A DNA stretch of 64,000 nt from Patescibacteria group bacterium (lineage in GTDB: Bacteria > Patescibacteriota > Minisyncoccia > UBA6257 > 2-01-FULL-56-20). This document shows positions 6,740 to 37,502 of the stretch, one piece after another. The position numbers and the translations under genes were made by a program. The notes below the pieces were generated by a model. It ran no database searches, was not told the origin of the DNA, and saw only the letters and a list, made by a program, of their open reading frames with translations. Positions within the stretch are counted from its first letter, which is position 1; every line of letters starts with the position of its first letter. The stretch spans positions 173,956-237,955 of the forward strand of contig JAGXBC010000001.1 of NCBI GenBank assembly GCA_018971305.1. Direction: 5' to 3'.

Positions 6740-7552
6740 CTATCTGTTGGCGATTTTGAGGATCTCTTCCGCCTTCTTAAGTTTTTCCAGCGTTCCGCAA
6801 TCAAGTCGTCTGCCCGGAAATTCCCAGCCATAAACCCTTCCCTTTATTATAAGCTCTATTTGCAAAGCAACTGCCAGAGGCAAGGCGTCGTCAGCAACCA
6901 TGGGCAACGTATCGGAAACACTTTTTAGATTTCTTAATATTGAAGGGGTTATGATATATCCGCCGACAATAGTGAGATTAGAAGGGGCTTCTTTGGCAAG
7001 GGGTTTTTCCACTATCTCCGTAACCTCGTAGATATTCCCTCCCCATCTATTATTTTTTGCCGCATATGTTTTTACCTTCTTGATCCCCACGACACCAAAA
7101 CGGGAAACTATTTTTTTAGGGACCCTTTCTAAAAGCAACACCGGAGAACGTTGCGATTCGTAGATTCTAATAAGAGATTGTAAAACAGGGGGTTTTTCGA
7201 TAATAATATCGTCACAAAATCTAACGGCGAAGGCCTCGCCACGGAGCAGATCGTAGGCCTGAATAATTGCGTGTCCATTGCCACCCGGAGTAGCCTGTTC
7301 ACGAACGTGAAAGCCCAATTCCGGGAATTTCTTTCCATGGACACGTAAATATTCCTGGAATTTGCCGCGGCCGGAGGGATTAACAATTAAGATAACTTCT
7401 TTTATGCCGCTCAGTACGGCCTCTTCTAAAACGTATTCAATAAGGGGCCTGCCGTTAACTTTTATGAGGTTTTTAGGGATGTGGCGGGTTAAGGGCAACA
7501 GCCGCTTTCCCCTGCCGGCCACAGGCAGAACAAGCTTTGTTATTCTCTTCAT
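6740..7552 (-). CDS. sugar-1-phosphate nucleotidylyltransferase, UTP-glucose-1-phosphate uridylyltransferase (GalU)-like
   Basis: The N-terminus MKRITKLVLPVAGRGKRLLPLTRHIPKNLIKVNGRPLIEYVLEEA has the LPxAGxGxRxxPxT nucleotidyltransferase signature. Length is 270 aa. Confidence 0.75.
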   Translation of the reverse strand: MKRITKLVLPVAGRGKRLLPLTRHIPKNLIKVNGRPLIEYVLEEAVLSGIKEVILIVNPSGRGKFQEYLRVHGKKFPELGFHVREQATPGGNGHAIIQAYDLLRGEAFAVRFCDDIIIEKPPVLQSLIRIYESQRSPVLLLERVPKKIVSRFGVVGIKKVKTYAAKNNRWGGNIYEVTEIVEKPLAKEAPSNLTIVGGYIITPSILRNLKSVSDTLPMVADDALPLAVALQIELIIKGRVYGWEFPGRRLDCGTLEKLKKAEEILKIANR

Positions 7553-7591
7553 GTTTTAAATTCTATAATCTAAATTATATATTCTCAAATC

Positions 7592-8314
7592 TCACAAACC
7601 CCACTGCGCCAACCCTAAAATCACCACCAGGAATGAGAAAAATATGGAAAAAGAAATCAATACCTTATCTTTTATTAATATCCCAGCCGAATAATCGGCA
7701 GCCAGCTCCATAAGCATCGTAGCTGTTAAAAATACCAGGGCCGACTGATAAAAAAAGTTTATAGGCAGAAGGAGGGCGACAAGAGATATCTGCCAGATGA
7801 TAATTGCTGAAATGCCAGCTATTATAGACGGGGGTATTCGAGCGCCGCCCGATGAATCAGGACGGTCAGCAAACCGCAGGAATTCATTGATGAGGAAGAA
7901 AAAAACAGCGGCAATTACAATCATCCAAACAAATCCAGCCACCGTCCCCCAGTTGTCAAATTTTGCAAAGAACTTAATAAAAGTCAAAAACATAATTGCC
8001 AGAACCAAAATCTCGTGAGCGGATTTCCTTCCGATAAAAATCAGGTCTTTGATGCCAAGAATGAGATAGAAAACCAACGACAACAGCACTGCAAACGGCA
8101 ATCCCGCCGGTTCCGCAATAGAGAAAAAAATAAGCACTGCGAAAGGCAGGAGTAACTTGATCGGCCGGAAAAACGGGACAAAATACATATATAAAGCTAT
8201 GAGGAAGAAAATCCAGAATGGCAGAAAAAACCAAGCTGCGCCGAAAATTACAGCCTTCACAACGTGGGCACGCAAGGGAATGGCCTTTTTAATTGTCGTT
8301 ATAAATTTATCCAT
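7592..8314 (-). CDS. hypothetical polytopic membrane protein
   Basis: The ORF is open from 8404. The probable start is the internal Met of MDKFITTIKK. At least six hydrophobic helices follow. No recognisable family. Confidence 0.45.
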   Translation of the reverse strand: MDKFITTIKKAIPLRAHVVKAVIFGAAWFFLPFWIFFLIALYMYFVPFFRPIKLLLPFAVLIFFSIAEPAGLPFAVLLSLVFYLILGIKDLIFIGRKSAHEILVLAIMFLTFIKFFAKFDNWGTVAGFVWMIVIAAVFFFLINEFLRFADRPDSSGGARIPPSIIAGISAIIIWQISLVALLLPINFFYQSALVFLTATMLMELAADYSAGILIKDKVLISFSIFFSFLVVILGLAQWGL

Positions 8315-28556: not shown

Positions 28557-29549
28557 ATGAAACCAATTCTTGTTTCCGGCATCCAGACTTCAGGCCGATT
28601 GCACCTTGGCAATTATTTGGGCGCCTTAAAAAATTTTGTTGACCTGCAAAATTCGGGAAAGTACGATTGTTATTTTTTCTTAGCCGACTTACATTCATTA
28701 ACCGAGGCGTTCAATCCAGAAGATAAACATAAACAAGTCATTGAACTGGCCGCGGATTTTCTGGCTGCCGGCCTGGACCCCAAGAAATCCGTTATCTTCC
28801 AGCAATCGCAGGTCCCGGCGCATACGGAACTCGGATGGATTTTCAATACGATTACGCCATTCGGAGAATTAAACAGGATGACACAGTTTAAAGAGAAATC
28901 CGACGCGCAAAAAGAAAATGCGAATGTCGGGCTTTTAACTTATCCCACTCTGATGGCCGCCGACATTCTTTTATATGACGCCAAATTTGTGCCGGTTGGC
29001 GACGACCAAAAACAGCATTTGGAACTCACGAGAACTATCGCCCGTAAATTCAACGCCAAATTCGGCGAAACTTTCACGGAGCCACAACCACTATTTACAG
29101 CAGCCACTCGGGTGATGAACCTTGGCGAACCGGAGCGAAAAATGTCCAAGTCGCGCTCGCATCCACAAAACGTGATTTTCGTTGACGACTCGCCGGAAGA
29201 AATTTCCGCCAAAATAAAATCCGCCGTAACAGACTCCGGCTCGGAGGTTAAGTACGACATCAAAAACAAACCCGCAATAAGCAACTTGCTTACTATCTAT
29301 TCCGCCCTAAGCGGAGAAGCCATCCCTAAACTGGAGAAATATTTCACAGGGAAAAAGTATTCAGAGTTCAAAGTTAAGCTTGCAGAGCTGATATCCGATT
29401 ACTTCGCGGATTACCGCAAGAAGAAAAAGTTATTACTCGCCAAACCGCAGACACTTATAACAACGCTCAAATCCGGTTCAGCCAAAGCGGCAAAAGTTGC
29501 CGACAAAAAGATACACGAAGTTAAAAAAATAATAGGATTGGCGATTTAA
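28557..29549 (+). CDS. trpS: tryptophanyl-tRNA synthetase
   Basis: HIGH-region equivalent SGIQTSGRLHLGNYLG. KMSKS motif (RKMSKSRSH). 330 aa, class I TrpRS. Confidence 0.95.
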   Translation: MKPILVSGIQTSGRLHLGNYLGALKNFVDLQNSGKYDCYFFLADLHSLTEAFNPEDKHKQVIELAADFLAAGLDPKKSVIFQQSQVPAHTELGWIFNTITPFGELNRMTQFKEKSDAQKENANVGLLTYPTLMAADILLYDAKFVPVGDDQKQHLELTRTIARKFNAKFGETFTEPQPLFTAATRVMNLGEPERKMSKSRSHPQNVIFVDDSPEEISAKIKSAVTDSGSEVKYDIKNKPAISNLLTIYSALSGEAIPKLEKYFTGKKYSEFKVKLAELISDYFADYRKKKKLLLAKPQTLITTLKSGSAKAAKVADKKIHEVKKIIGLAI

Positions 29550-32500
29550 ATCTTCCTTACAGCCAACCAGGAATCCGCGCCGTTAACCTTCGTTTCCGCC
29601 TCCGCTTCAAATTTTTCCGATTTTTTATATTCTATCGCTTCGGCTCCGACCTCAACTTTCAAAACTTTTTCGTACTTGTAGATTGCGAGACGCACTTCCG
29701 CCGGCAACTGGGCCATCAATATCATTTTATCCTTCGGCTTAAGCCCGGATTTTTGCCGCAGCTCCTGAACGGCCCTTATTATCTCCCGCAATATACCCTC
29801 TTCGCGCAGTTCCGGCGTGACAACGGTATCCAGTTCAATTTCTTCCTTAAATCTGGCACTGAAAACAACTTTCTTAATATTCACCTCTTCTGCTAAAATA
29901 CCAAGCAATTCTTTGGGAATCTTCAGCTTTCCGGTTTTAACCCTGAGTTCACCGAGAGGCTGACGGACTTTTATTCCCGCCTCCGCCCGCTTGGCCAATC
30001 CCAAACTAGCCAAACGCCTCACTTCGGCCATTCCTTCCAGTAATTTAGAATTTTGAGTTTTTAATTTTGGTTTTGTCTCCGGCCAATCTTCCAAATGAAC
30101 TGATTCCTGCGTTCCGTTAAGTTCTCCGTAAAGTAATTCCGAAAAGAATGGTGCGAAGGGAGCTGTTAGTTTCGCCGTTTCACGCAGAACCAAGCCGAGT
30201 GTGGCGCAAGCCGAATCAAAATCCTTGGCGCTCTCCGGTTTTTGCAAGCGCCGGCGCGAACGGCGGATATACCAGCGCGACAGATCGTCAACCAACTTCT
30301 CTATAACAAGCGCGGCTTCTCTTATTTCGTATTTATCCAGGTGCTTTGTGGTATCGGCAACAGTTTCTCCGAGCCGAGACAGAATCCATTTGTCCAGAAC
30401 ATTGGTCGAGGATGGAATTTTATCTCCCGAACTTTTCTCGCTCGCATATGTTTTATAAAATACCAAACTGTTCCAAAGAAGCATGTGCATCCTGCGGTAT
30501 GTTTTCGAAATCTCGTTCTCGTCAAAATTTTTTGTCTCGCCCGGAGGATTCACGGTATAGAAATACCAGCGGACGGCATCAACTCCGTATTTATTGATAA
30601 CCTCCCAGGGGTCAACTATATTCCCTTTGGACTTGGACATTTTCTGCCCGTGCTTATCGTTTATCAGCCCCAAAGAAACAACGTTCTTATATGGCGCCGG
30701 GTATCCCAAAGATGTAGCAACTGCAAGCAGGGTGTAAAACCATCCTCGCGTCTGATCCATTGCCTCCGAAATATAATCTGCCGGATAAGCGCGGCTTTTG
30801 TCTATAGCATCCTCATTCTCAAAAGGATAATGCTGCTGAGCGAAAGGCATTGAGCCGGAATCAAACCAGACGTCAGCTACTTCTTTGACCCGTCCTGTTC
30901 TCGCGCCGCATTGCGGGCAGGCAATATGGATACCATCGGCATATGGCTTGTGCAGGTCTATAACTCCAGTACCATCACGGGGCACTATCTTTAGAGTTAA
31001 CTCTCTTGTTTCAGCTACGCCGATAAAATCCTGGCCACGGCTTATTTTTTCCCGTATAGCGCGTTTTTCATCCCATGCTTCCGCCGCGTGCGTAAGCATC
31101 CAGATCGGATACTCATGGCTCACGAGCAGGATATTCTTGCCGCGGTATTTTTTTTCCAATTCCTGCAAAATTTCCCAAACCCGACTGCGCAAATCGCGCA
31201 GGGACTCGCCTCCTTCCGGCTTGCCCTCAAACTTTGATTCGTATGTGGGAAAAAGCTTATGGTAGCGGCTATCACGGCCCCCCTGAAGCATTGAACCCAA
31301 ATCTACCTCGCGCAGACGTTTGTCGAAAACTACTTTTTTGACGCCCAATGCCTCCGCCGCAATCTCGGCTGTTTCTTTTGTCCGGATTATGTCCGAAGAA
31401 ACGATGACGTCTATTTTTTTTCTGCTGCTTTTTAGTTTCTGCAAAAAATTTTTCGCCGACTTTTCCGCGAGCGAGCGGCCGATAACGGTCAAAGTGTTGT
31501 CTTTAGACCAACCGGAATCAATAAAGTGTTCGGCGTTGCTTTTCGCCTCTCCGTGCCGCATAACCCAATAATTATTCCTGGAACCTCCGGCAAGCTTACT
31601 GAGCTCGTCAATGCCTCCCGCCACTTCGCAGTGATTGCATTTTTTGCATTCCCAGATCGGTAACGGCGTTCCCCAGAACCGTTCACGGGAAAAATTCCAA
31701 TCTTTAACCTCACGCAGCCATTCGCCGAAACGCCCCTGTTTTACGTATTCCGGCGTCCAATTGATTTTATTGTTATTGGCTATAAGCTGCTTCCTTAAAC
31801 CGCTCATGGCTACGAACCAGGAATTTCTTGCGTAATATAGAATTGGCGTGCCGCACCGCCAGCAGTAGGGATAATCATGCTTGTAGGGAAGAACTTTCAG
31901 GAGCGAACCGCGCTGTTTTAAATGTTCAACGATGCCAGCCTCGGTTTCCTTGGACTTCGCGAACAGGCCGGAGAAACCAGAAACGTCCTTAGTGAACTTC
32001 CCAACTTCATCAACCGTGTGATACCTCGGTAAGCCGACTTTAAGTCCCAGCTGATAGTCATCTTCGCCGTACATAACCGCAGTGTGGACTACCCCGGTTC
32101 CCTCTGTCGTATTAACAAAATCGGCGTCGTAAACCTTGTACGAACTTGGCGAACGCAATGCCGGAATTTCAAAAAGCGGCTCGTAGCTCAGGCCGATAAG
32201 TTCGTTCCCCTCAAAAATCTCCCTCAGGTCGGGGGCGGAACCAAAAATAGCGGGATTATTCTTAACGGCTTCCTCAGCTACAATCCAACGCTCTATTTTC
32301 CCGTCAATCATCTTCTTCAGTACGGCGTATTTGATGTTTTTACCAACGGCCAAAGCCACATTTCCTGGGAGCGTCCACGGCGTAGTCGTCCAGGATAAAA
32401 CATACGTATCATCTCCCGCCGAGAAATATCCGCCGATTTTCTGCCCCCTCTTCAATTTGAATTTTATATAAACGGAGTCATCAGTAGTTTCTTTGTAACC

Positions 32501-33076
32501 CAAAGCAAGCTCGTGCGAAGAAAGCGACGTGCCGCAGCGCACGCACCAGGGAACTACCTTATGTCCCTTATAAAGAAGTTTTTTTGTCCAAAAGCGCTTT
32601 ATTATCCACCAAAGAGTTTCTATGTAGGAGCTTTCGTAAGTTATGTAAGGGTCTTTCAGGTCCAGCCAAAAGCCCATCCGTTTTGTGAGGCGCTCCCATT
32701 CGTCTTTGTATTCCCAGACGGACTCGCGGCATTTTTTATTGAAGGCCTCAACGCCGTAGTTTTCAATGTCCTTTTTCGTTTTCAGGCCCAATTGTTTTTC
32801 CACCCCTATCTCCACGGGCAATCCGTGCGTGTCCCAGCCGCCTTTTCTCGGAACCAAATAGCCCCGCATCGCCTTGTAGCGTGGGATTATGTCTTTGAAG
32901 GCACGAGCCAGAATATGGTGCACGCCCGGCCTGCCGTTAGCAGTTGGCGGACCCTCGTAAAATATGAACTTTTTAGCGCCTTTCCGCTTAGCGAGAGTTT
33001 TTGCAAAAATGTCGCTTTCGTTCCAAAATTTCAAAACTTTTTCCTCCTCCTTGGGAAGATTGAATTCTTCGGGCAT
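29546..33076 (-). CDS. ileS: isoleucyl-tRNA synthetase with an inserted histidine-phosphatase (PGAM-like) domain
   Basis: HIGH motif PPTANGRPGVHHILARAF. CP1 editing domain. KMSKS (HGQKMSKSKGNIVDP). The anticodon-binding C-terminus is intact. Between the zinc-knuckle Cys pairs WECKKCNHC (aa about 476-483) and IACPQCGARTGR (aa about 719-728) lies a 230-aa insert instead of the usual 30-40 aa. Confidence 0.95.
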   Translation of the reverse strand: MPEEFNLPKEEEKVLKFWNESDIFAKTLAKRKGAKKFIFYEGPPTANGRPGVHHILARAFKDIIPRYKAMRGYLVPRKGGWDTHGLPVEIGVEKQLGLKTKKDIENYGVEAFNKKCRESVWEYKDEWERLTKRMGFWLDLKDPYITYESSYIETLWWIIKRFWTKKLLYKGHKVVPWCVRCGTSLSSHELALGYKETTDDSVYIKFKLKRGQKIGGYFSAGDDTYVLSWTTTPWTLPGNVALAVGKNIKYAVLKKMIDGKIERWIVAEEAVKNNPAIFGSAPDLREIFEGNELIGLSYEPLFEIPALRSPSSYKVYDADFVNTTEGTGVVHTAVMYGEDDYQLGLKVGLPRYHTVDEVGKFTKDVSGFSGLFAKSKETEAGIVEHLKQRGSLLKVLPYKHDYPYCWRCGTPILYYARNSWFVAMSGLRKQLIANNNKINWTPEYVKQGRFGEWLREVKDWNFSRERFWGTPLPIWECKKCNHCEVAGGIDELSKLAGGSRNNYWVMRHGEAKSNAEHFIDSGWSKDNTLTVIGRSLAEKSAKNFLQKLKSSRKKIDVIVSSDIIRTKETAEIAAEALGVKKVVFDKRLREVDLGSMLQGGRDSRYHKLFPTYESKFEGKPEGGESLRDLRSRVWEILQELEKKYRGKNILLVSHEYPIWMLTHAAEAWDEKRAIREKISRGQDFIGVAETRELTLKIVPRDGTGVIDLHKPYADGIHIACPQCGARTGRVKEVADVWFDSGSMPFAQQHYPFENEDAIDKSRAYPADYISEAMDQTRGWFYTLLAVATSLGYPAPYKNVVSLGLINDKHGQKMSKSKGNIVDPWEVINKYGVDAVRWYFYTVNPPGETKNFDENEISKTYRRMHMLLWNSLVFYKTYASEKSSGDKIPSSTNVLDKWILSRLGETVADTTKHLDKYEIREAALVIEKLVDDLSRWYIRRSRRRLQKPESAKDFDSACATLGLVLRETAKLTAPFAPFFSELLYGELNGTQESVHLEDWPETKPKLKTQNSKLLEGMAEVRRLASLGLAKRAEAGIKVRQPLGELRVKTGKLKIPKELLGILAEEVNIKKVVFSARFKEEIELDTVVTPELREEGILREIIRAVQELRQKSGLKPKDKMILMAQLPAEVRLAIYKYEKVLKVEVGAEAIEYKKSEKFEAEAETKVNGADSWLAVRKI

Positions 33077-33103
33077 AGATTAAAAATATCACGTTATTCG
33101 TAT

Positions 33104-34072
33104 CTATTCAAAAAATCTGCTGCGTATTTTATGGGTATTGCCATGGCTCAAAAGTCCAAGATAAGCGTTAATCGTCGCTGGCGCTGGGTTGGCTATTACC
33201 ATCTTTAACATTCTTCTTCTCGTCGTTGTCCGAAAAACACGGTGATCAGGAAAATTTATCCACCCCAAAAAATCAACTCCGGACGCAATGGTATTTATGA
33301 AAATTTTATTTGGATGAAGCGTAAGTCGCAATTTATTTTCCAAAAATTCTTTTATTTTTGGAACTAGAGATTCCAGCAATCCGCGGTTCTCCGAGAAAAT
33401 AACGAAGTCGTCCGCATAACGTATATAGTGCCTTGTTTTCAGTTTGTGCTTCACAAACTGGTCAAACTCGTTCATATAAACATTTACAAAGAGTTGTGAA
33501 GTGAGGTTGCCGAGCGGTAAACCTTGTCCAGGCGCGCTTGATGAAAAACTCTCGATAACTCTTTCCAGGAGCCGCAGCGTATCAGCGTCTGGGATATATG
33601 AACGTAGAATATCAAGGAGGACGGCGTGGTCGATGTTGGCAAAAAACTTTTGAATGTCACACCTGAGAACCCAGGAGGTACGCGTATTGTTCTTACTAAT
33701 AATGCGGGCGAACGCGCGAAAACGATTCATTGCGGCATGCGTTCCTTTTCCGACTCGGCATGAGAACGAATCAGCTATGAAAGTTTTATCGAAGAACGGA
33801 TAGAGCACCCGGTAGATGGCGTGATGGAGTAAGCGGTCGCGGACGGTTGCCTTGTGGATATTCCGCGGTTTCGGGTCGCAGATGTTGAATGCTTGATACC
33901 CACCGTGTCGGTACGCACCGTTCAAAATATCCGCGCGAAGTGATAGAATGTTATCCATAAGGCGCGATTGGAACTCCTGCACATCACGTTTCCCGCTCTT
34001 GCCGCGCAAAAATTCCCTCCAGGCCTCAAGCAGGTTTTCCACGCTTATGATTTCCTCAAATTTATGAACCAT
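33104..34072 (-). CDS. diversity-generating retroelement reverse transcriptase
   Basis: The start is Met of MVHKFEEIISVENLLEAWREFLRGKSGKRDVQEF (domain 0). RT motifs ...IHKATVRDRLLHHAIY..., GLPLGNLTSQLFVNVYMNEFD (DGR-type motif 4) and IRYADDFVIFSE (YADD). No maturase/X domain. About 322 aa. Confidence 0.85.
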   Translation of the reverse strand: MVHKFEEIISVENLLEAWREFLRGKSGKRDVQEFQSRLMDNILSLRADILNGAYRHGGYQAFNICDPKPRNIHKATVRDRLLHHAIYRVLYPFFDKTFIADSFSCRVGKGTHAAMNRFRAFARIISKNNTRTSWVLRCDIQKFFANIDHAVLLDILRSYIPDADTLRLLERVIESFSSSAPGQGLPLGNLTSQLFVNVYMNEFDQFVKHKLKTRHYIRYADDFVIFSENRGLLESLVPKIKEFLENKLRLTLHPNKIFINTIASGVDFLGWINFPDHRVFRTTTRRRMLKMVIANPAPATINAYLGLLSHGNTHKIRSRFFE

Positions 34073-34105
34073 CTTAATTTTCACAATAAAAATTTTCAAG
34101 TAACT

Positions 34106-34116
34106 CCCCCCCCCCC
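34106..34116. repeat. C11/G11 homopolymer tract between the divergent RT and Avd-like genes
   Basis: 11 consecutive C on the plus strand. It sits 30 nt after the RT start codon (on the opposite strand) and just after the in-frame stop (TAA 34101) that precedes the Avd-like frame. Confidence 0.9.
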
Positions 34117-34121
34117 GACAC

Positions 34122-34460
34122 ATCACGCTTCCTATCATCCAACACCTGGTAGCGGCGTACAAAACCTGGCATGAATTTCTGCCGCATGTACCCAAGGATG
34201 CGAGATACTCGTTAGGAACTAAGGTCGACGCTTCGTTTATAGAAACGATTGAAGCGGTATTCACCGCAAGCTATCTCAGTAGAGAGAGTAAACTTCCTTA
34301 TCTCGAAAAAGCTGCCGCGAAACTGGACATGGTTAAATTCTTTCTCCAGATAATCTGGGAAGTCAAGGCGCTCGACAATAAAAAATATATTACACTCTCG
34401 GAAAAGCTGGATGAAATAGGCAGAATGCTCGGCGGATGGCTTAGGAAAATGTCTACTTAA
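34122..34460 (+). CDS. Avd-like four-helix-bundle accessory protein of the DGR (no canonical start codon in frame)
   Basis: The plus-frame translation is ITLPIIQHLVAAYKTWHEFLPHVPKDARYSLGTKVDASFIETIEAVFTAS...KLDMVKFFLQIIWEVKALDNKKYITLSEKLDEIGRMLGGWLRKMST*. It follows the Avd/TIGR02436 pattern (VW.K...L...IY..T..FPK.E.Y.L.SQ.RRAA.S...NIAEG; E..F..IA.GS..E...QL..A; EI.KML..LI..L). The first in-frame codon after stop 34101 is CTC. ATC at 34122 or ATG at 34064 (+1 frame, across the C11 tract) are the only start candidates. Confidence 0.6.
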   Translation: MTLPIIQHLVAAYKTWHEFLPHVPKDARYSLGTKVDASFIETIEAVFTASYLSRESKLPYLEKAAAKLDMVKFFLQIIWEVKALDNKKYITLSEKLDEIGRMLGGWLRKMST

Positions 34461-34497
34461 ACCATTCCGCCGGACATCGCCCGTTGTTTTCATTTGC

Positions 34498-34624
34498 TGC
34501 CAATTACTCGCGACGCGACCGTTGCGATTGAAGTCGTTGTCAAGCCAGTTCCAGTTCAGGTACCAGCGCTCGCCGTTCTGATTGAGGTAGGGAACGTTCC
34601 GGTTGCCGTTCGCGTTCAGCACGA
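34498..34624 (-). repeat. DGR template repeat (TR)
   Basis: 127-nt repeat matching 34958-35084 (offset 460). On the minus strand it reads ...VLNANGNRNVPYLNQNGERWYLNWNWLDNDFNRNGRVASN with 8 AAC codons. Confidence 0.85.
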
Positions 34625-34886
34625 ATGTGCGCAAGGCCGTCCGGGCCACCATCCTTCGAGTCACAAACAAAAACCATACTCTCGGGATTGTATCGTATTC
34701 GGAATTTTGAATTCCTTAGCCTCGCACACCAAGTAGCAACAATTATGAAGCGATTAACGAATGCACGCTAGGAGAAAACCCGTCCTCCCCCATTCCGGCA
34801 GACGCCATCGCGGAATTCGATGCGCACAACCTTAGCCGTGCGCATAATATCTACTATCCATAAGGATTATATCAAAAAAATTTAAT

Positions 34887-34908
34887 GGGCCCTAACGAAT
34901 TAGGGCCC
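34887..34908 (-). other. GC-rich hairpin with UUCG loop downstream of VR (DGR-associated hairpin / target-gene terminator)
   Basis: Minus strand GGGCCCTAA-TTCG-TTAGGGCCC, a perfect 9-bp stem, 52 nt after the target stop. It is followed by ATTAAATTTTTTTGATATAATCC. Confidence 0.7.
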
Positions 34909-34959
34909 AAGGGTTGAGGGTTCAAGCGACACAAAGGATCTGAGTCACAAGAACCAATG

Positions 34960-35580
34960 CTACTTGCTCGCGACGCGACCGTTGCGATTGAAGCCGCAGT
35001 CAAGCCAGCTCCGGCCCAGGTACCAGCGCTCGCCGTTCCGACTGAGGTAGGGAACGTTCCGGTAGCCGTTCGCGTACAGCACGACCAAACCCGGAAAATC
35101 GATGTAAACTTTTCCGAGAAGGGACATGAATACGGGGAATTCATCCTGGTGCTCAACAAGCCAAACGGCCTGCTGGTAACCCAGGACAAGATTCCGGCGG
35201 GACACGAGCCTGCGCTCGTATTCGCTGCCAACGATAGACTTCTCGTCAGAACGCAACAATGTGCCAAGACGGAGAATAACTTCATCGGTTGGCGAAGAGT
35301 CGGACTCGATTTTTTCGATCTGAGAGAACGCCCTGCGGAGTTCCTCGAGTGTCGGCTGCTTCAGGGCTGGAATCCGAACGGCGACATCTTCCATCGTCTT
35401 CCAGAATTCCAACATCTTGATCTCGGCGTTGCCGAGATAGATGTCACGGACGCCTGAAAGGTTGGTGCCGGTTGAAAGCCATTTTACAAAATCGGGCGTG
35501 CAACCATTCCGCTCAAGCGCATGATCGAATTCTGCGGCTTGGCGAGCAAACATGACGGGTTGAGACTTGTCATTAGGCAT
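34960..35580 (-). CDS. DGR target protein with C-terminal variable region (VR 34963-35084), probable minimal C-type-lectin/FGE-like fold
   Basis: 206 aa. The C-terminus VLYANGYRNVPYLSRNGERWYLGRSWLDCGFNRNGRVASK aligns to the TR. The residues that differ from the TR are mostly where the TR has AAC (Asn) codons. AAGGAGG RBS 7 nt upstream of ATG 35580. No signal peptide. Confidence 0.8.
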   Translation of the reverse strand: MPNDKSQPVMFARQAAEFDHALERNGCTPDFVKWLSTGTNLSGVRDIYLGNAEIKMLEFWKTMEDVAVRIPALKQPTLEELRRAFSQIEKIESDSSPTDEVILRLGTLLRSDEKSIVGSEYERRLVSRRNLVLGYQQAVWLVEHQDEFPVFMSLLGKVYIDFPGLVVLYANGYRNVPYLSRNGERWYLGRSWLDCGFNRNGRVASK

Positions 35581-35600
35581 GACATGTCCTCCTTTTCTAT

Positions 35601-35725
35601 GCGACGTGTTCCAGATTAGGAACGTGTCGCGATGCCACTGGCTCCCCCGATCAAACTGGGTTTTGCCATAGCAGAAAACTATCCGATTGCCTAGAGCTTA
35701 TCGAAAGGCTTTCTGCTATGGCAAA
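35601..35725 (-). promoter_or_regulatory. structured 5' leader of the DGR target gene
   Basis: A 16-bp perfect inverted repeat TTTGCCATAGCAGAAA (35662-35677) / TTTCTGCTATGGCAAA (35710-35725) has a 32-nt spacer. A 10/12 inverted repeat GCGACGTGTTCC..GGAACGTGTCGC (35601-35630) abuts the RBS. An extended -10 TGTATAAT lies on the minus strand near 35755-35762. Confidence 0.4.
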
Positions 35726-35774
35726 TGTAAATAAATCAGGTTTTCAAAGTACGCTACAATTATACACCATATTA

Positions 35775-37502
35775 CTATATTCTGTCAATAGCAGTGATTC
35801 CCAATAAATTCAGCCCTTTTTCTATGATTTTCGCCGTTATATTAATAAGCCCAAGAAGCGCGCTCCGCCGACTGGCGGATTCTTCTTTGAGTACCGGCGT
35901 GGTTTCGTATAAACGGTTAGCCAACACGGCCAGCTTATAAAGATAGTTAGCTAGGTTGCTCGTCTGCAGTGTTTCCCCACTTCGCGCCACTTCGTCGGGA
36001 AATTCAAAAATTTTCCGAGCGAGCGCAAGTTCAACATCAGAATTTAATAATGTAAAGTTCTTGCTTTTAGGTTTTAGAGCTTGGGACTTTCTTAAAATAC
36101 TCTTAAGGCGGGCATACGTGTACTGCAAATACGGCCCGCTGTCTCCGGAAAAATCCAGCATTCTTTTCCAGTCAAAAACGATGTCGGTTGTGCGTCCCTC
36201 CCGCAAATCATTGTATTTCAAGGCTCCAACGGCAACCGCCTCAGCGATTTTATCTTTTTCTTTAGCCGATAATTCTTTATTTTTTTCTTCAACAATCTCC
36301 CTCGCCAGCTTGATAGCCTTACCTAAAACCTCTTTAAGTAATATGGTCCTCCCTTCGCGTGTAGCGAGCTTTTGGCCGCTCTCCCCTAGAACCAAACCGT
36401 ATTTAACGTGCTTGAGTTCAACCCCATCGGCCAATCCAAGAATATTAGTTATGGCGAAAAGCTGTTCAAAGTGCAGAGATTGTTCGTTGCCCACAACATA
36501 TAAAATTTTCTCCGGCTTATATTTTTTGACACGGTATTCAATATTCGCAATATCGCGCGTAAGGTAAAGGGATGCTCCATCCGCTTTTTCTATTAACGCC
36601 GGAGGCAGATTGAACTTATCTAGTTTTATAACTATCGCGCCCTCGCTTTTTACGGCGACGCCGTCTTGCACAAGGCGCGAAACAAGCGGCTTCATATCTT
36701 TCTCAAAAAAGCTTTCGCCTTTCCATTCGTCGAACTCTACACCGAGCTCTTTATATGTTCTCTCGAATTCTTTAAGCGATTCTTTTTTAAACCATTGCCA
36801 AAGCTTGCGGTTTTCCTTATCGCCTTCTTCTAATTTTTTGAATTCTTCCTGGCCCTCCAGCTCCAATCCCGGGCGGGACTTCATCTCGTCGTGAAAGCGG
36901 ACGTAGAGCTTCTGCAATTCCTCTATTGGTTTTTCTTCTATCTTTTTCTTATCGCCCCACATTTTATAGGCGGCGATAAGTTTGCCGAACTGCGTCCCCC
37001 AGTCGCCCAAATAATTCCAGCGGATAACTTTATATCCCAGTGATTCAAAAACATTGGCAAGCGCCGCGCCGATTATCGTTGTCCGCAAATGGCCCACGTG
37101 CATCATCTTCGCGATATTCGGCTGAGAATATTCAACGATAACGGTTTTGCTTTTTCCAATACTTCTCTCGCCATATTTTTTTATATTCTTGGTAACCATG
37201 GCCAATTCGTTTTGCAGCGCTTCAGGTGAAAACCAAAAGTTTATAAATCCCGGCGCAGCGGCTTCAACTTTTTGGAAAAACCCAGCCGGCGCAGCGGCAC
37301 TAATTTTCTGCACCAATTCCCTGGCCAGTTCAAGAGGATTTTTCTTTTCCCGCTTAGCCAAAACCATAGCCAAGTTCGTGGAATAATGGCCGAAGTTTTC
37401 TTGTTCCGGAACTGTAACGCTAAAATCTCTGCCATCGGAAAACTCGGATAAAATTTTTATTATCTTATCTTTCATTACCATTAAGAATAATATAAAAAGC
37501 AA
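35775..37502 (-). CDS. argS: arginyl-tRNA synthetase
   Basis: 575 aa. HIGH-type motif region MMHVGHLRTTIIGAAL. Class I ArgRS domain order: N-terminal add-1, catalytic core, DALR anticodon-binding C-terminus. Confidence 0.95.
   Translation of the reverse strand: MLFILFLMVMKDKIIKILSEFSDGRDFSVTVPEQENFGHYSTNLAMVLAKREKKNPLELARELVQKISAAAPAGFFQKVEAAAPGFINFWFSPEALQNELAMVTKNIKKYGERSIGKSKTVIVEYSQPNIAKMMHVGHLRTTIIGAALANVFESLGYKVIRWNYLGDWGTQFGKLIAAYKMWGDKKKIEEKPIEELQKLYVRFHDEMKSRPGLELEGQEEFKKLEEGDKENRKLWQWFKKESLKEFERTYKELGVEFDEWKGESFFEKDMKPLVSRLVQDGVAVKSEGAIVIKLDKFNLPPALIEKADGASLYLTRDIANIEYRVKKYKPEKILYVVGNEQSLHFEQLFAITNILGLADGVELKHVKYGLVLGESGQKLATREGRTILLKEVLGKAIKLAREIVEEKNKELSAKEKDKIAEAVAVGALKYNDLREGRTTDIVFDWKRMLDFSGDSGPYLQYTYARLKSILRKSQALKPKSKNFTLLNSDVELALARKIFEFPDEVARSGETLQTSNLANYLYKLAVLANRLYETTPVLKEESASRRSALLGLINITAKIIEKGLNLLGITAIDRI

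Follow-up and report, generated by a model that had tools for sequence, protein, structure and literature searches.

The diversity-generating retroelements (DGRs) of the candidate phyla radiation (CPR) form a clade of their own, DGR clade 2 (Roux et al. 2021, PMC8144416), and 90% of a CPR DGR set share a single layout, Architecture B3 'TR-(avd)-RT', in which the gene avd (accessory variability determinant) lies on the reverse strand between the template repeat (TR) and the reverse transcriptase (RT) gene (Wu et al. 2018, PMC5758913). In the Bordetella DGR, the RNA that flanks the TR is essential: it wraps the bRT-Avd complex on both sides, primes in cis and stops polymerisation (bioRxiv 10.1101/2023.10.23.563531). 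In the literature compared here, a comparison that Paul et al. 2017 lies outside of, the regulation of DGR activity is poorly documented, and no link between DGRs and repeat tracts or homopolymer switching was found. Here, we describe a DGR cassette of a Patescibacteria group bacterium, found at positions 33104-35725 of a 64-kb window (the whole stretch of DNA that was analysed, 64,000 nt, positions 173,956 to 237,955 of contig JAGXBC010000001.1; all window coordinates count from its first letter), and compare it with its relatives across the clade.

As a DGR, the locus adds nothing new; CPR genomes are known for their many DGRs of this layout. Its value lies in the cassette taken together with about 100 relatives, which show how the clade works. 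Two features stand out, a pure C homopolymer within the 5' part of avd and a 117-nt structured RNA that abuts the 5' edge of the TR; both are, as far as checked within the comparison named above, undescribed.

Results

A chromosomal DGR of the Patescibacteria type

We are highly confident that the region is a bona fide chromosomal DGR of the Patescibacteria (CPR) type, a reading that takes in the mechanism proposed below and, as a probable addition, a tract-dependent supply of Avd. It is based on the adenine-specific differences between the TR and the variable repeat (VR), the position of the VR at the 3' end of an open reading frame (ORF), repeat ends that resemble initiation of mutagenic homing (IMH) elements, a DGR-type RT, the presence of Avd and about 50 like cassettes.

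The TR and VR form a direct repeat of 127 nt with an offset of 460 and an identity of 89%, located where the initial annotation of this DNA had placed it. Eleven mismatches fall into the core, and all of those listed in that annotation were correct. Read on the coding (minus) strand, ten of them replace a TR adenine by another base (A>G 7, A>T 3), every one at the first or second codon position of the target frame, and the sole non-adenine mismatch is a T>C (plus-strand 34553 A>G). Given 29 adenines among the 117 core bases of the TR, a concentration of 10 out of 11 mismatches on adenine has a probability of p=2e-6 (hypergeometric). The TR is intergenic, the only ORF across it running antisense to avd, while the VR constitutes the last 40 codons of the 206-aa target ORF. 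The peptides that had been quoted for both repeats were correct as well, but the count of 8 AAC codons in the TR has to be revised to 9 AAC plus 3 AAT in frame. Both repeats share a GC-rich 14-mer, GGTCGCGTCGCGAG, which is followed by CAAGTAGCA in the VR and by TAATTGGCA in the TR; three extra mismatches (34501, 34503, 34506) fall into the last 9 nt, past this 14-mer. Judged by their sequence, these ends, GC-rich at the start, look like an IMH*/IMH pair, and their divergence at non-adenine positions agrees with what had been noted earlier. Additional VR copies, for which a genome-wide search had been suggested, were looked for in the 64-kb window with an A-to-N degenerate TR, and no second VR was found there. 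The VR sequence is identical in the window and in a second GenBank record, JAGWKQ010000001.1 (GCA_028865265.1, Patescibacteria group bacterium).

The RT most likely starts at ATG 34072, giving 322 aa as also called in the GenBank record, rather than at the GTG of a 386-aa ORF. It matches Pfam RVT_1 (E=1.6e-23), and its top match among all PDB sequences is 8ub7_A (E=1.2e-46) with 163 bits, whereas group II and 'retron-type' RTs score no more than 78 bits. The same PDB entry also holds a chain named Avd, and we take it to be the bRT-Avd-RNA structure of the Bordetella phage BPP-1, with chain A as its DGR RT. In the alignment to 8ub7_A, which spans residues 5-293, PKPR (bRT R74), a hydrophobic residue at the position of I181, LPLGNLTSQ, YADD and the catalytic aspartates are all kept. 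The motif [I/V/L]GxxxSQ is the signature of DGR RTs, whereas group II introns have QGxxxSP, and R74 and I181 of bRT promote adenine mutagenesis (PMC7826257). We assign the RT to the DGR lineage because of its best PDB match, 8ub7_A, and its LGxxxSQ signature; the DGR-type motifs reported in the initial annotation are indeed present. Within 32900-36000, Rfam matched neither a group II intron nor a retron RNA family.

Avd, in DGRs a four-helix-bundle pentamer, is recognised by Pfam bAvd PF22296 (E=3.6e-15, 56.8 bits with a cutoff of 40) and covers the full NCBIfam DivGenRetAVD profile. In the GenBank record the gene encodes 131 aa (MNHLNFHNKNFQVTPPPRHITLPIIQHL...) and its start shares 9 nt with that of the divergent RT. 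The cassette order is target/VR - TR - (avd, opposite strand) - RT, on the chromosome between ileS and argS, and by strand and order it fits the CPR Architecture B3. An Avd-like gene between TR and RT had thus been recognised correctly, but the earlier description lacked that it lies on the plus strand, opposite the RT. Similarly, the cassette had been called complete, which holds in that all tested sequence hallmarks are present but not in that avd lies on the other strand and, in the window, out of frame with its start. An inverted avd as an oddity or a misassembly can be ruled out, as this orientation is kept in all related cassettes and is published as Architecture B3. The DGR layout, the inverted avd and a small target without recognisable domains are ordinary for the clade and already known.

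Some observations do not favour this assignment. The best NCBIfam match of the RT is a group II intron RT/maturase model (TIGR04416), though at 142.7 bits it remains far under the cutoff of 300, and a DGR-RT family is absent among the NCBIfam matches of the RT. The NCBIfam score of Avd, 76.6-77.3 bits, lies just under the 80-bit cutoff. In the window as given, avd is without a usable start codon. Finally, only 10 of the 29 core adenines differ between TR and VR, accompanied by the one non-adenine change.

Relatives across the clade

Is the cassette typical of its clade? When GTDB species genomes were scanned with the target alignment, 21 loci were obtained, nearly all of them in metagenome-assembled genomes of Patescibacteria. 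In ten of the 21, the window counted, the order target/VR - TR - avd (opposite strand) - RT is complete. Two contain a target beside a C-terminal RT fragment only (L006, 5826-5924; L009, 5882-6091), and about ten have a target without a DGR nearby (L003, L005, L007, L011, L013, L014, L016, L018-L020). Targets without an intact DGR are either remote ones or 'frozen' variable proteins that a decayed cassette has left behind. Another 80 loci came from metagenomes, which were scanned with an Avd alignment specific to the clade, and in all 80 the RT is divergent from avd.

Core differences between TR and VR number 923 in 49 pairs that are non-redundant and ungapped, and 860 of them (93%) fall on adenines of the TR (A>G 514, A>T 204, A>C 142), with adenine making up 25% of the TR bases. 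Given this share, the clade as a whole behaves as adenine-mutagenic DGRs. For the targets P0034, P0051, P0047 and P0060, there was either no comparable adjacent DGR or a single usable contig. Two loci carry more than one target-family gene: in L010 a second one lies downstream of the RT (7546-8004), and P0048/P0049 are two copies on one 12.4-kb contig. On this basis, multi-target cassettes may occur in the clade.

A C homopolymer in the 5' part of avd

The C homopolymer is the only G/C run of at least 8 nt in the window, where the expected number of runs of at least 11 nt is 0.012. Across 370 kb of related loci, 63 such runs lie at the avd/RT junction versus 4 elsewhere. The GenBank record JAGWKQ010000001.1 has 10 C at this site, which is its sole difference from the window over 6,594 bp. 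With 10 C, the ATG at 34064 reads through the tract into the 131-aa Avd. With 11 C, the gene is left without a start: there is no in-frame ATG, GTG or TTG in the window, and the run separates the Avd domain from ATG 34064.

The tract is a feature of the clade. A C run of at least 6 nt occupies the avd junction in 70 of 82 non-redundant cassettes, with lengths of 6 (3 loci), 7 (5), 8 (7), 9 (20), 10 (27), 11 (6), 14 (1) and 30 nt (1, L069), and in two cassettes (L041, L096) a (CA)n repeat replaces the C run at the same site. The ATG-initiated frames that enter the tract are in frame with Avd in 26 loci, shifted by +1 in 17 and by +2 in 25, a distribution indistinguishable from random, and only 37% of the tract-bearing cassettes are in frame. 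The repeat-free cassettes differ from this picture: 10 of 10 have an in-frame upstream ATG, versus 26 of 72 repeat-bearing ones (Fisher p=1.2e-4), and in eight of the ten the ATG lies 13-22 codons upstream, comparable to 34064 in the window (e.g. L038, MSQLNFHNNFSNNFSPRKNLSIIQ). The only two loci that lack both a C tract and an in-frame start are those with (CA)n. We conclude from the intact frame of all repeat-free cassettes that the tract region is coding and that scrambled frames are confined to loci with a simple repeat.

Tract length also differs between records in two of three populations: the pair of records described above and a population from Hainich well H43 with an identical target (P0042), in which five assemblies have a tract of 9 nt and one each a tract of 10 and of 11 nt. 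Over 3 kb, the flanks of the H43 contigs show 0-2 nt of difference, and three of the contigs stop at the tract or within 3 nt of it. The third population has an 8-C tract on which four assemblies agree. Among the first 100 loci, near-identical pairs are limited to L071/72 and L099/100, with equal tract lengths in both.

Taken together, these sequences suggest that Avd expression depends on slippage of the tract, sequencing error being an alternative. We tentatively propose, with a confidence that stays below even, that the poly-C (occasionally CA) tract in the first ~20 codons of avd acts as a slippage-prone switch, by which the supply of Avd, and with it hypermutation, would be turned ON and OFF stochastically and heritably. 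The route could be replication slippage (phase variation) or, equally possible, transcriptional slippage or +1 ribosomal frameshifting on CCC-C.

Alternatively, the tract has no switching role and is a mere linker or leader, its length differences are homopolymer sequencing or assembly errors, and Avd is made from a downstream start or by routine read-through. We regard this as a serious possibility, if not one we would call probable, and several observations that weigh against a switch speak for it. The 26:17:25 distribution fits random expectation and would also be expected of an untranslated tract. Openness of one particular upstream frame offers no proof of translation, since most loci have two open frames out of three and none is uniquely kept open. 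The length-polymorphic contigs have only 4-6x coverage, poly-G is error-prone, and contigs that end at or next to the tract are what poor poly-G sequencing would give, while the four assemblies of the 8-C population show no length variation at all. Furthermore, the NCBIfam Avd profile begins 21 residues past ATG 34064, so that the extension appears dispensable for the fold, and in 32 of 82 loci the first conserved Avd residue is encoded by TTG (27), ATG (4) or GTG (1), from which translation of a complete Avd domain could start without the tract.

Against a tract without function in switching stands, above all, the contrast between the repeat-free cassettes and the repeat-bearing ones, whose only tract-less exceptions carry (CA)n at the very same site. 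An error rate of 63% in assembly consensus sequences is implausible. The pure C run is not explained by proline codon usage either: in the housekeeping genes of the window, CCC accounts for 20% of the proline codons and CCCCCC for 0 of 15 Pro-Pro dicodons, and we rejected a selection for poly-proline on these grounds. As for a downstream start, the leucine codon at the first conserved Avd residue varies synonymously (TTG/TTA/CTG/CTA), like an internal translated codon, canonical starts downstream of the tract are not enriched in the out-of-frame loci, and 23 of 70 loci, including the window, have no canonical start upstream in frame or near the conserved N-terminus.

Two other roles for the tract were considered and rejected. 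As a promoter spacer, it is flanked by no convincing -35/-10 pair; the only candidate, TTGAAA-17-TAAGAT (34099-34071, 9/12), overlaps the RT ATG. As an intramolecular G-quadruplex, a run of 9-10 nt is, by reasoning, too short even for a two-tier structure with 1-nt loops. In one locus (L113), the sequence switches past the tract to a different RT-side sequence (25/51 mismatches), where the tract may be a recombination or assembly breakpoint.

A covarying RNA element upstream of the TR

The 117-nt element forms the end of a ~330-nt spacer between the target stop and the TR (UGUUGCUACUUGGUG...UUGCGCACAU, minus strand, 34741 to 34625). In an alignment of 60 non-redundant copies (A3), RNAalifold predicted a 12-bp closing helix P1, a 4-bp hairpin P2 and a bipartite helix P3 with an insertion-tolerant loop, and found compensatory double changes in 22 of 24 pairs. 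The junctions CCGAAUAxGAUACA and GGUGGC are nearly invariant. Overall, 95.7% of the alignment cells are paired, compared to 33-54% when the partners are slid by 1-3 columns, and 316 cells carry double changes, compared to 34-65 with slid partners; in 0 of 500 shuffles was any observed measure matched. Rfam returned no match to the element (32900-36000, E<=1). Because of its position, its conservation and the analogy with the Bordetella DGR, the element is probably the scaffold of the template RNA that RT and Avd bind in this clade. In other DGRs, the inspection by Handa et al. reached no further than 40 nt upstream of the TR (bioRxiv 10.1101/2023.10.23.563531).

On the other side of the TR, a candidate stem-loop pairs its 5' arm with CCAUCCGCCG, the antisense of the avd codons for LGGW, over 10 bp with one bulge. 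An equivalent stem of 9-11 bp, (AU)GCUCGGCGG/CCGCCGAGC(AU), is present in the closest relatives L001, L002, L023, L027, L028 and L030. As a clade-wide feature, the downstream stem was rejected, as the mean best stem measures 5.7 bp versus 5.0 bp in shuffled tails. In the closest relatives only, the avd coding sequence may thus double as a structure of the template RNA. Past the VR lies a GC-rich hairpin with a U-rich run; at least 23 of the 55 related loci have a counterpart with a perfect stem of at least 7 bp about as far away. The hairpin may be the terminator of the target gene, a DGR inverted repeat downstream of the IMH, or both. Inverted repeats near the IMH are present in 34% of DGRs (Wu et al. 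2018, PMC5758913).

A palindromic unit (about CCCGTTAGAAA...TTTCTAACGGG) was observed at varied sites: inserted between tract and RT start in L004, L008 and L027 (possibly L035), and inside the P3 loop of the RNA element in L074 and L085. This distribution suggests a small mobile element, similar to a miniature inverted-repeat transposable element, in these genomes.

The target gene and its leader

The target, called in GenBank as a shorter protein of 197 aa from ATG 35553, has no Pfam or NCBIfam match. At least 68 further homologues of ~200 aa each were found, and all those with a taxonomic name belong to Patescibacteria, Parcubacteria, Paceibacterota or Minisyncoccia; the entry with 100% identity is KGJ89_01050 from 'Patescibacteria group bacterium'. 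The target had been regarded as unusually small for a DGR variable protein, a view that these homologues do not support, as a protein of ~200 aa without a recognisable domain is the norm among CPR DGR targets (Roux et al. 2021, PMC8144416). The family alignment consists of a variable N-terminus, a conserved core up to YIDFPGLVVV and then a hypervariable tail of 40 residues, which is the VR. The fold appears compact and weakly C-type-lectin-like (CLec); Foldseek against the PDB gave nothing significant. No paralogue of the target was found within the window by tblastn.

Upstream of the target gene, a hairpin of the 5' untranslated region has homologues with compensatory changes 20-80 nt upstream of the targets in at least eight loci (L002, L003, L006, L009, L010, L012, L015, L020), with a consensus of about UUUCGCCGYAGCGC...GCGCUGCGGCGAAA. 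The hairpin is kept also in loci without an intact DGR and therefore belongs to the target gene, not to the core of the retroelement. It may be a regulatory leader or an operator palindrome. Rfam gave only sub-threshold miRNA noise on it. Further upstream, a sigma-70-like promoter with full agreement to the consensus suggests, from the pattern match, a strong constitutive transcription of the variable protein.

The coordinates of all features are collected in Table 1. Next to the cassette, the neighbouring IleRS (29546-33076, minus, 1176 aa) contains, according to the precomputed Pfam list, a His_Phos_1 domain between two tRNA-synt_1 segments, which is an unusual domain fusion for an IleRS.

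Table 1. Features of the DGR cassette in the window
Feature	Position	Strand	Description
DGR RT gene	33104..34072	minus	322 aa; ATG 34072, stop 33104-33106
avd	34064..34460	plus	Opposite strand to RT/TR/VR; 131 aa with 10 C; ATG 34064 out of frame with 11 C
C homopolymer	34106..34116	plus	11 C here, within 5' part of avd; G tract on RT strand, 34 nt upstream of RT ATG
Conserved Avd domain	about 34128-34457	plus	Part of avd
Candidate stem-loop past TR	34430..34472	minus	CGGCGGAAUGG (34472-34462) pairs with CCAUCCGCCG (34439-34430)
TR	34498..34624	minus	Non-coding template repeat, 127 nt; 9 AAC + 3 AAT in VR frame
IMH*-like TR end	34498-34520	minus	GGTCGCGTCGCGAG + TAATTGGCA
Structured RNA element	34625..34741	minus	117 nt; abuts TR 5' edge; three helices
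GC-rich hairpin + U-rich run	34886..34909	minus	10-bp stem GGGCCCUAAU, 4-nt loop; 48 nt past VR end
VR	34958..35084	minus	Encodes C-terminal 40 residues of target; IMH-like end 34958-34980
Target (variable protein) gene	34960..35580	minus	206 aa; AAGGAGG 7 nt upstream of ATG 35580
Leader hairpin	35662..35725	minus	24 pairs; 5' untranslated region of target gene
Sigma-70-like promoter	35759..35788	minus	TTGACA-18-TATAAT, 12/12 consensus, pattern match only; overlaps argS end, points into target

Discussion

How would such a cassette work? The following scheme is modelled on the Bordetella-phage DGR, from which we infer the mechanism as well as transcript boundaries, RNA-protein binding, cis-priming and present-day activity. 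A non-coding RNA would be transcribed from the minus strand, made up of the three-helix element (117 nt), the TR (127 nt) and a short tail at the 3' end. In association with the Avd barrel, the RT would bind the flanking RNA structures and copy the TR into cDNA, with random nucleotides being inserted opposite template adenines. The cDNA would then replace the VR, guided by the common GC-rich IMH end, and up to 12 AAY codons could be recoded among the C-terminal 40 residues of a protein that is small, looks cytoplasmic and presumably has a compact, C-type-lectin-like fold. Translation of avd would start at the ATG that overlaps the RT start (34064) and then cross the C homopolymer, so that the tract length would set the avd frame, and the supply of Avd, hence mutagenesis, would probably be slippage-dependent.

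The cassette could also be a DGR by descent that is now silent or decaying, with 11 C frameshifting avd, no Avd being made and the VR frozen. The missing in-frame avd start in the window, the 10 of 29 differing adenines with one non-adenine change and the decay seen among relatives, of which L006 and L009 retain an RT fragment and about 10 of the 21 genome loci a target with no DGR nearby, are what such a locus would show. On the other hand, the RT ORF is intact, with YADD and the signature motif, as are the TR, the IMH ends, the RNA element and the Avd domain. Moreover, avd is in frame in the 10-C record that GenBank has for this genome, and a frame-breaking tract is the rule of the clade and not a decay of a single locus. 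We therefore consider a silent element unlikely. That the repeats are an ordinary duplication with random drift beside a group II intron or retron RT, for which the top NCBIfam match could be invoked, is practically refuted by the distance of that match from its cutoff, an 8ub7_A score twice that of any group II RT, LGxxxSQ in place of QGxxxSP, the adenine bias both locally and clade-wide, the absence of group II intron or retron RNA by Rfam and the adjacent Avd.

What would the two features mean for DGRs in general? Control through a homopolymer that decides on the frame of avd, the gene of an essential cofactor, is a simple hypothesis on DGR regulation. If true, the tract switch would be a contingency locus controlling a diversity generator and, combined with a three-helix RNA fused to the TR, would define a regulated and architecturally distinct DGR variant. 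The 117-nt RNA is a concrete candidate for the scaffold that RT and Avd bind in the inverted-avd (B3) layout, to which the Bordetella 'spacer' model is not applicable as it stands. In addition, the target family of ~200 aa represents a minimal variable-protein scaffold of possible interest for structural work or engineering.

Compared with the described systems, the locus is closest to the DGRs of the CPR (PMC5758913, PMC8144416), with which it shares the gene order, the avd on the reverse strand, the host group and the chromosomal site flanked by housekeeping genes (ileS, argS). In both, one target lies next to the cassette, carries its VR at the C-terminus and has no transmembrane or other conserved domain that could be recognised. 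The core shows no difference; the tract, the RNA 5' of the TR and the leader hairpin of the target are not mentioned for them in the literature compared. With the DGR of the Bordetella phage BPP-1 (mtd-avd-TR-brt), it has in common the RT alignment, Avd, adenine-specific differences, a TR dominated by AAC, a GC-rich IMH start, a hairpin past the VR and structured RNA flanking the TR. Unlike in BPP-1, where the structured RNA lies mainly downstream, the large conserved RNA is here upstream of the TR and self-folding, and a chromosomal element with a cellular target of 206 aa takes the place of a phage-borne one with a tail fibre target. For the variable protein itself, Mtd, Treponema TvpA (2y3c), FGE-like and DUF1566/Lcl-type domains are the C-type-lectin-fold DGR proteins to compare.

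As a structured non-coding RNA in physical continuity with a DGR template, with a presumed role in the organisation of reverse transcription, the 117-nt element resembles the RT-10 RNA motif (Weinberg et al. 2017, PMC5737381) and the Avd-binding stem-loop and cPRT-Stop duplex of Handa et al., but differs from them by its location 5' of the TR and its three-helix architecture. Finally, the tract resembles the contingency loci of Neisseria, Campylobacter, Haemophilus and Bordetella (PMC1891110, PMC8355987) in being a pure G/C homopolymer (7-11 nt) close to where an ORF begins, with a frame state that varies among genomes, a length that varies within population records and an occasional dinucleotide repeat at the same site. 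In contrast to these loci, switching is here a proposal, the host is an uncultivated member of the CPR, and the gene that would be controlled is not a surface antigen but the cofactor of a mutagenic retroelement.

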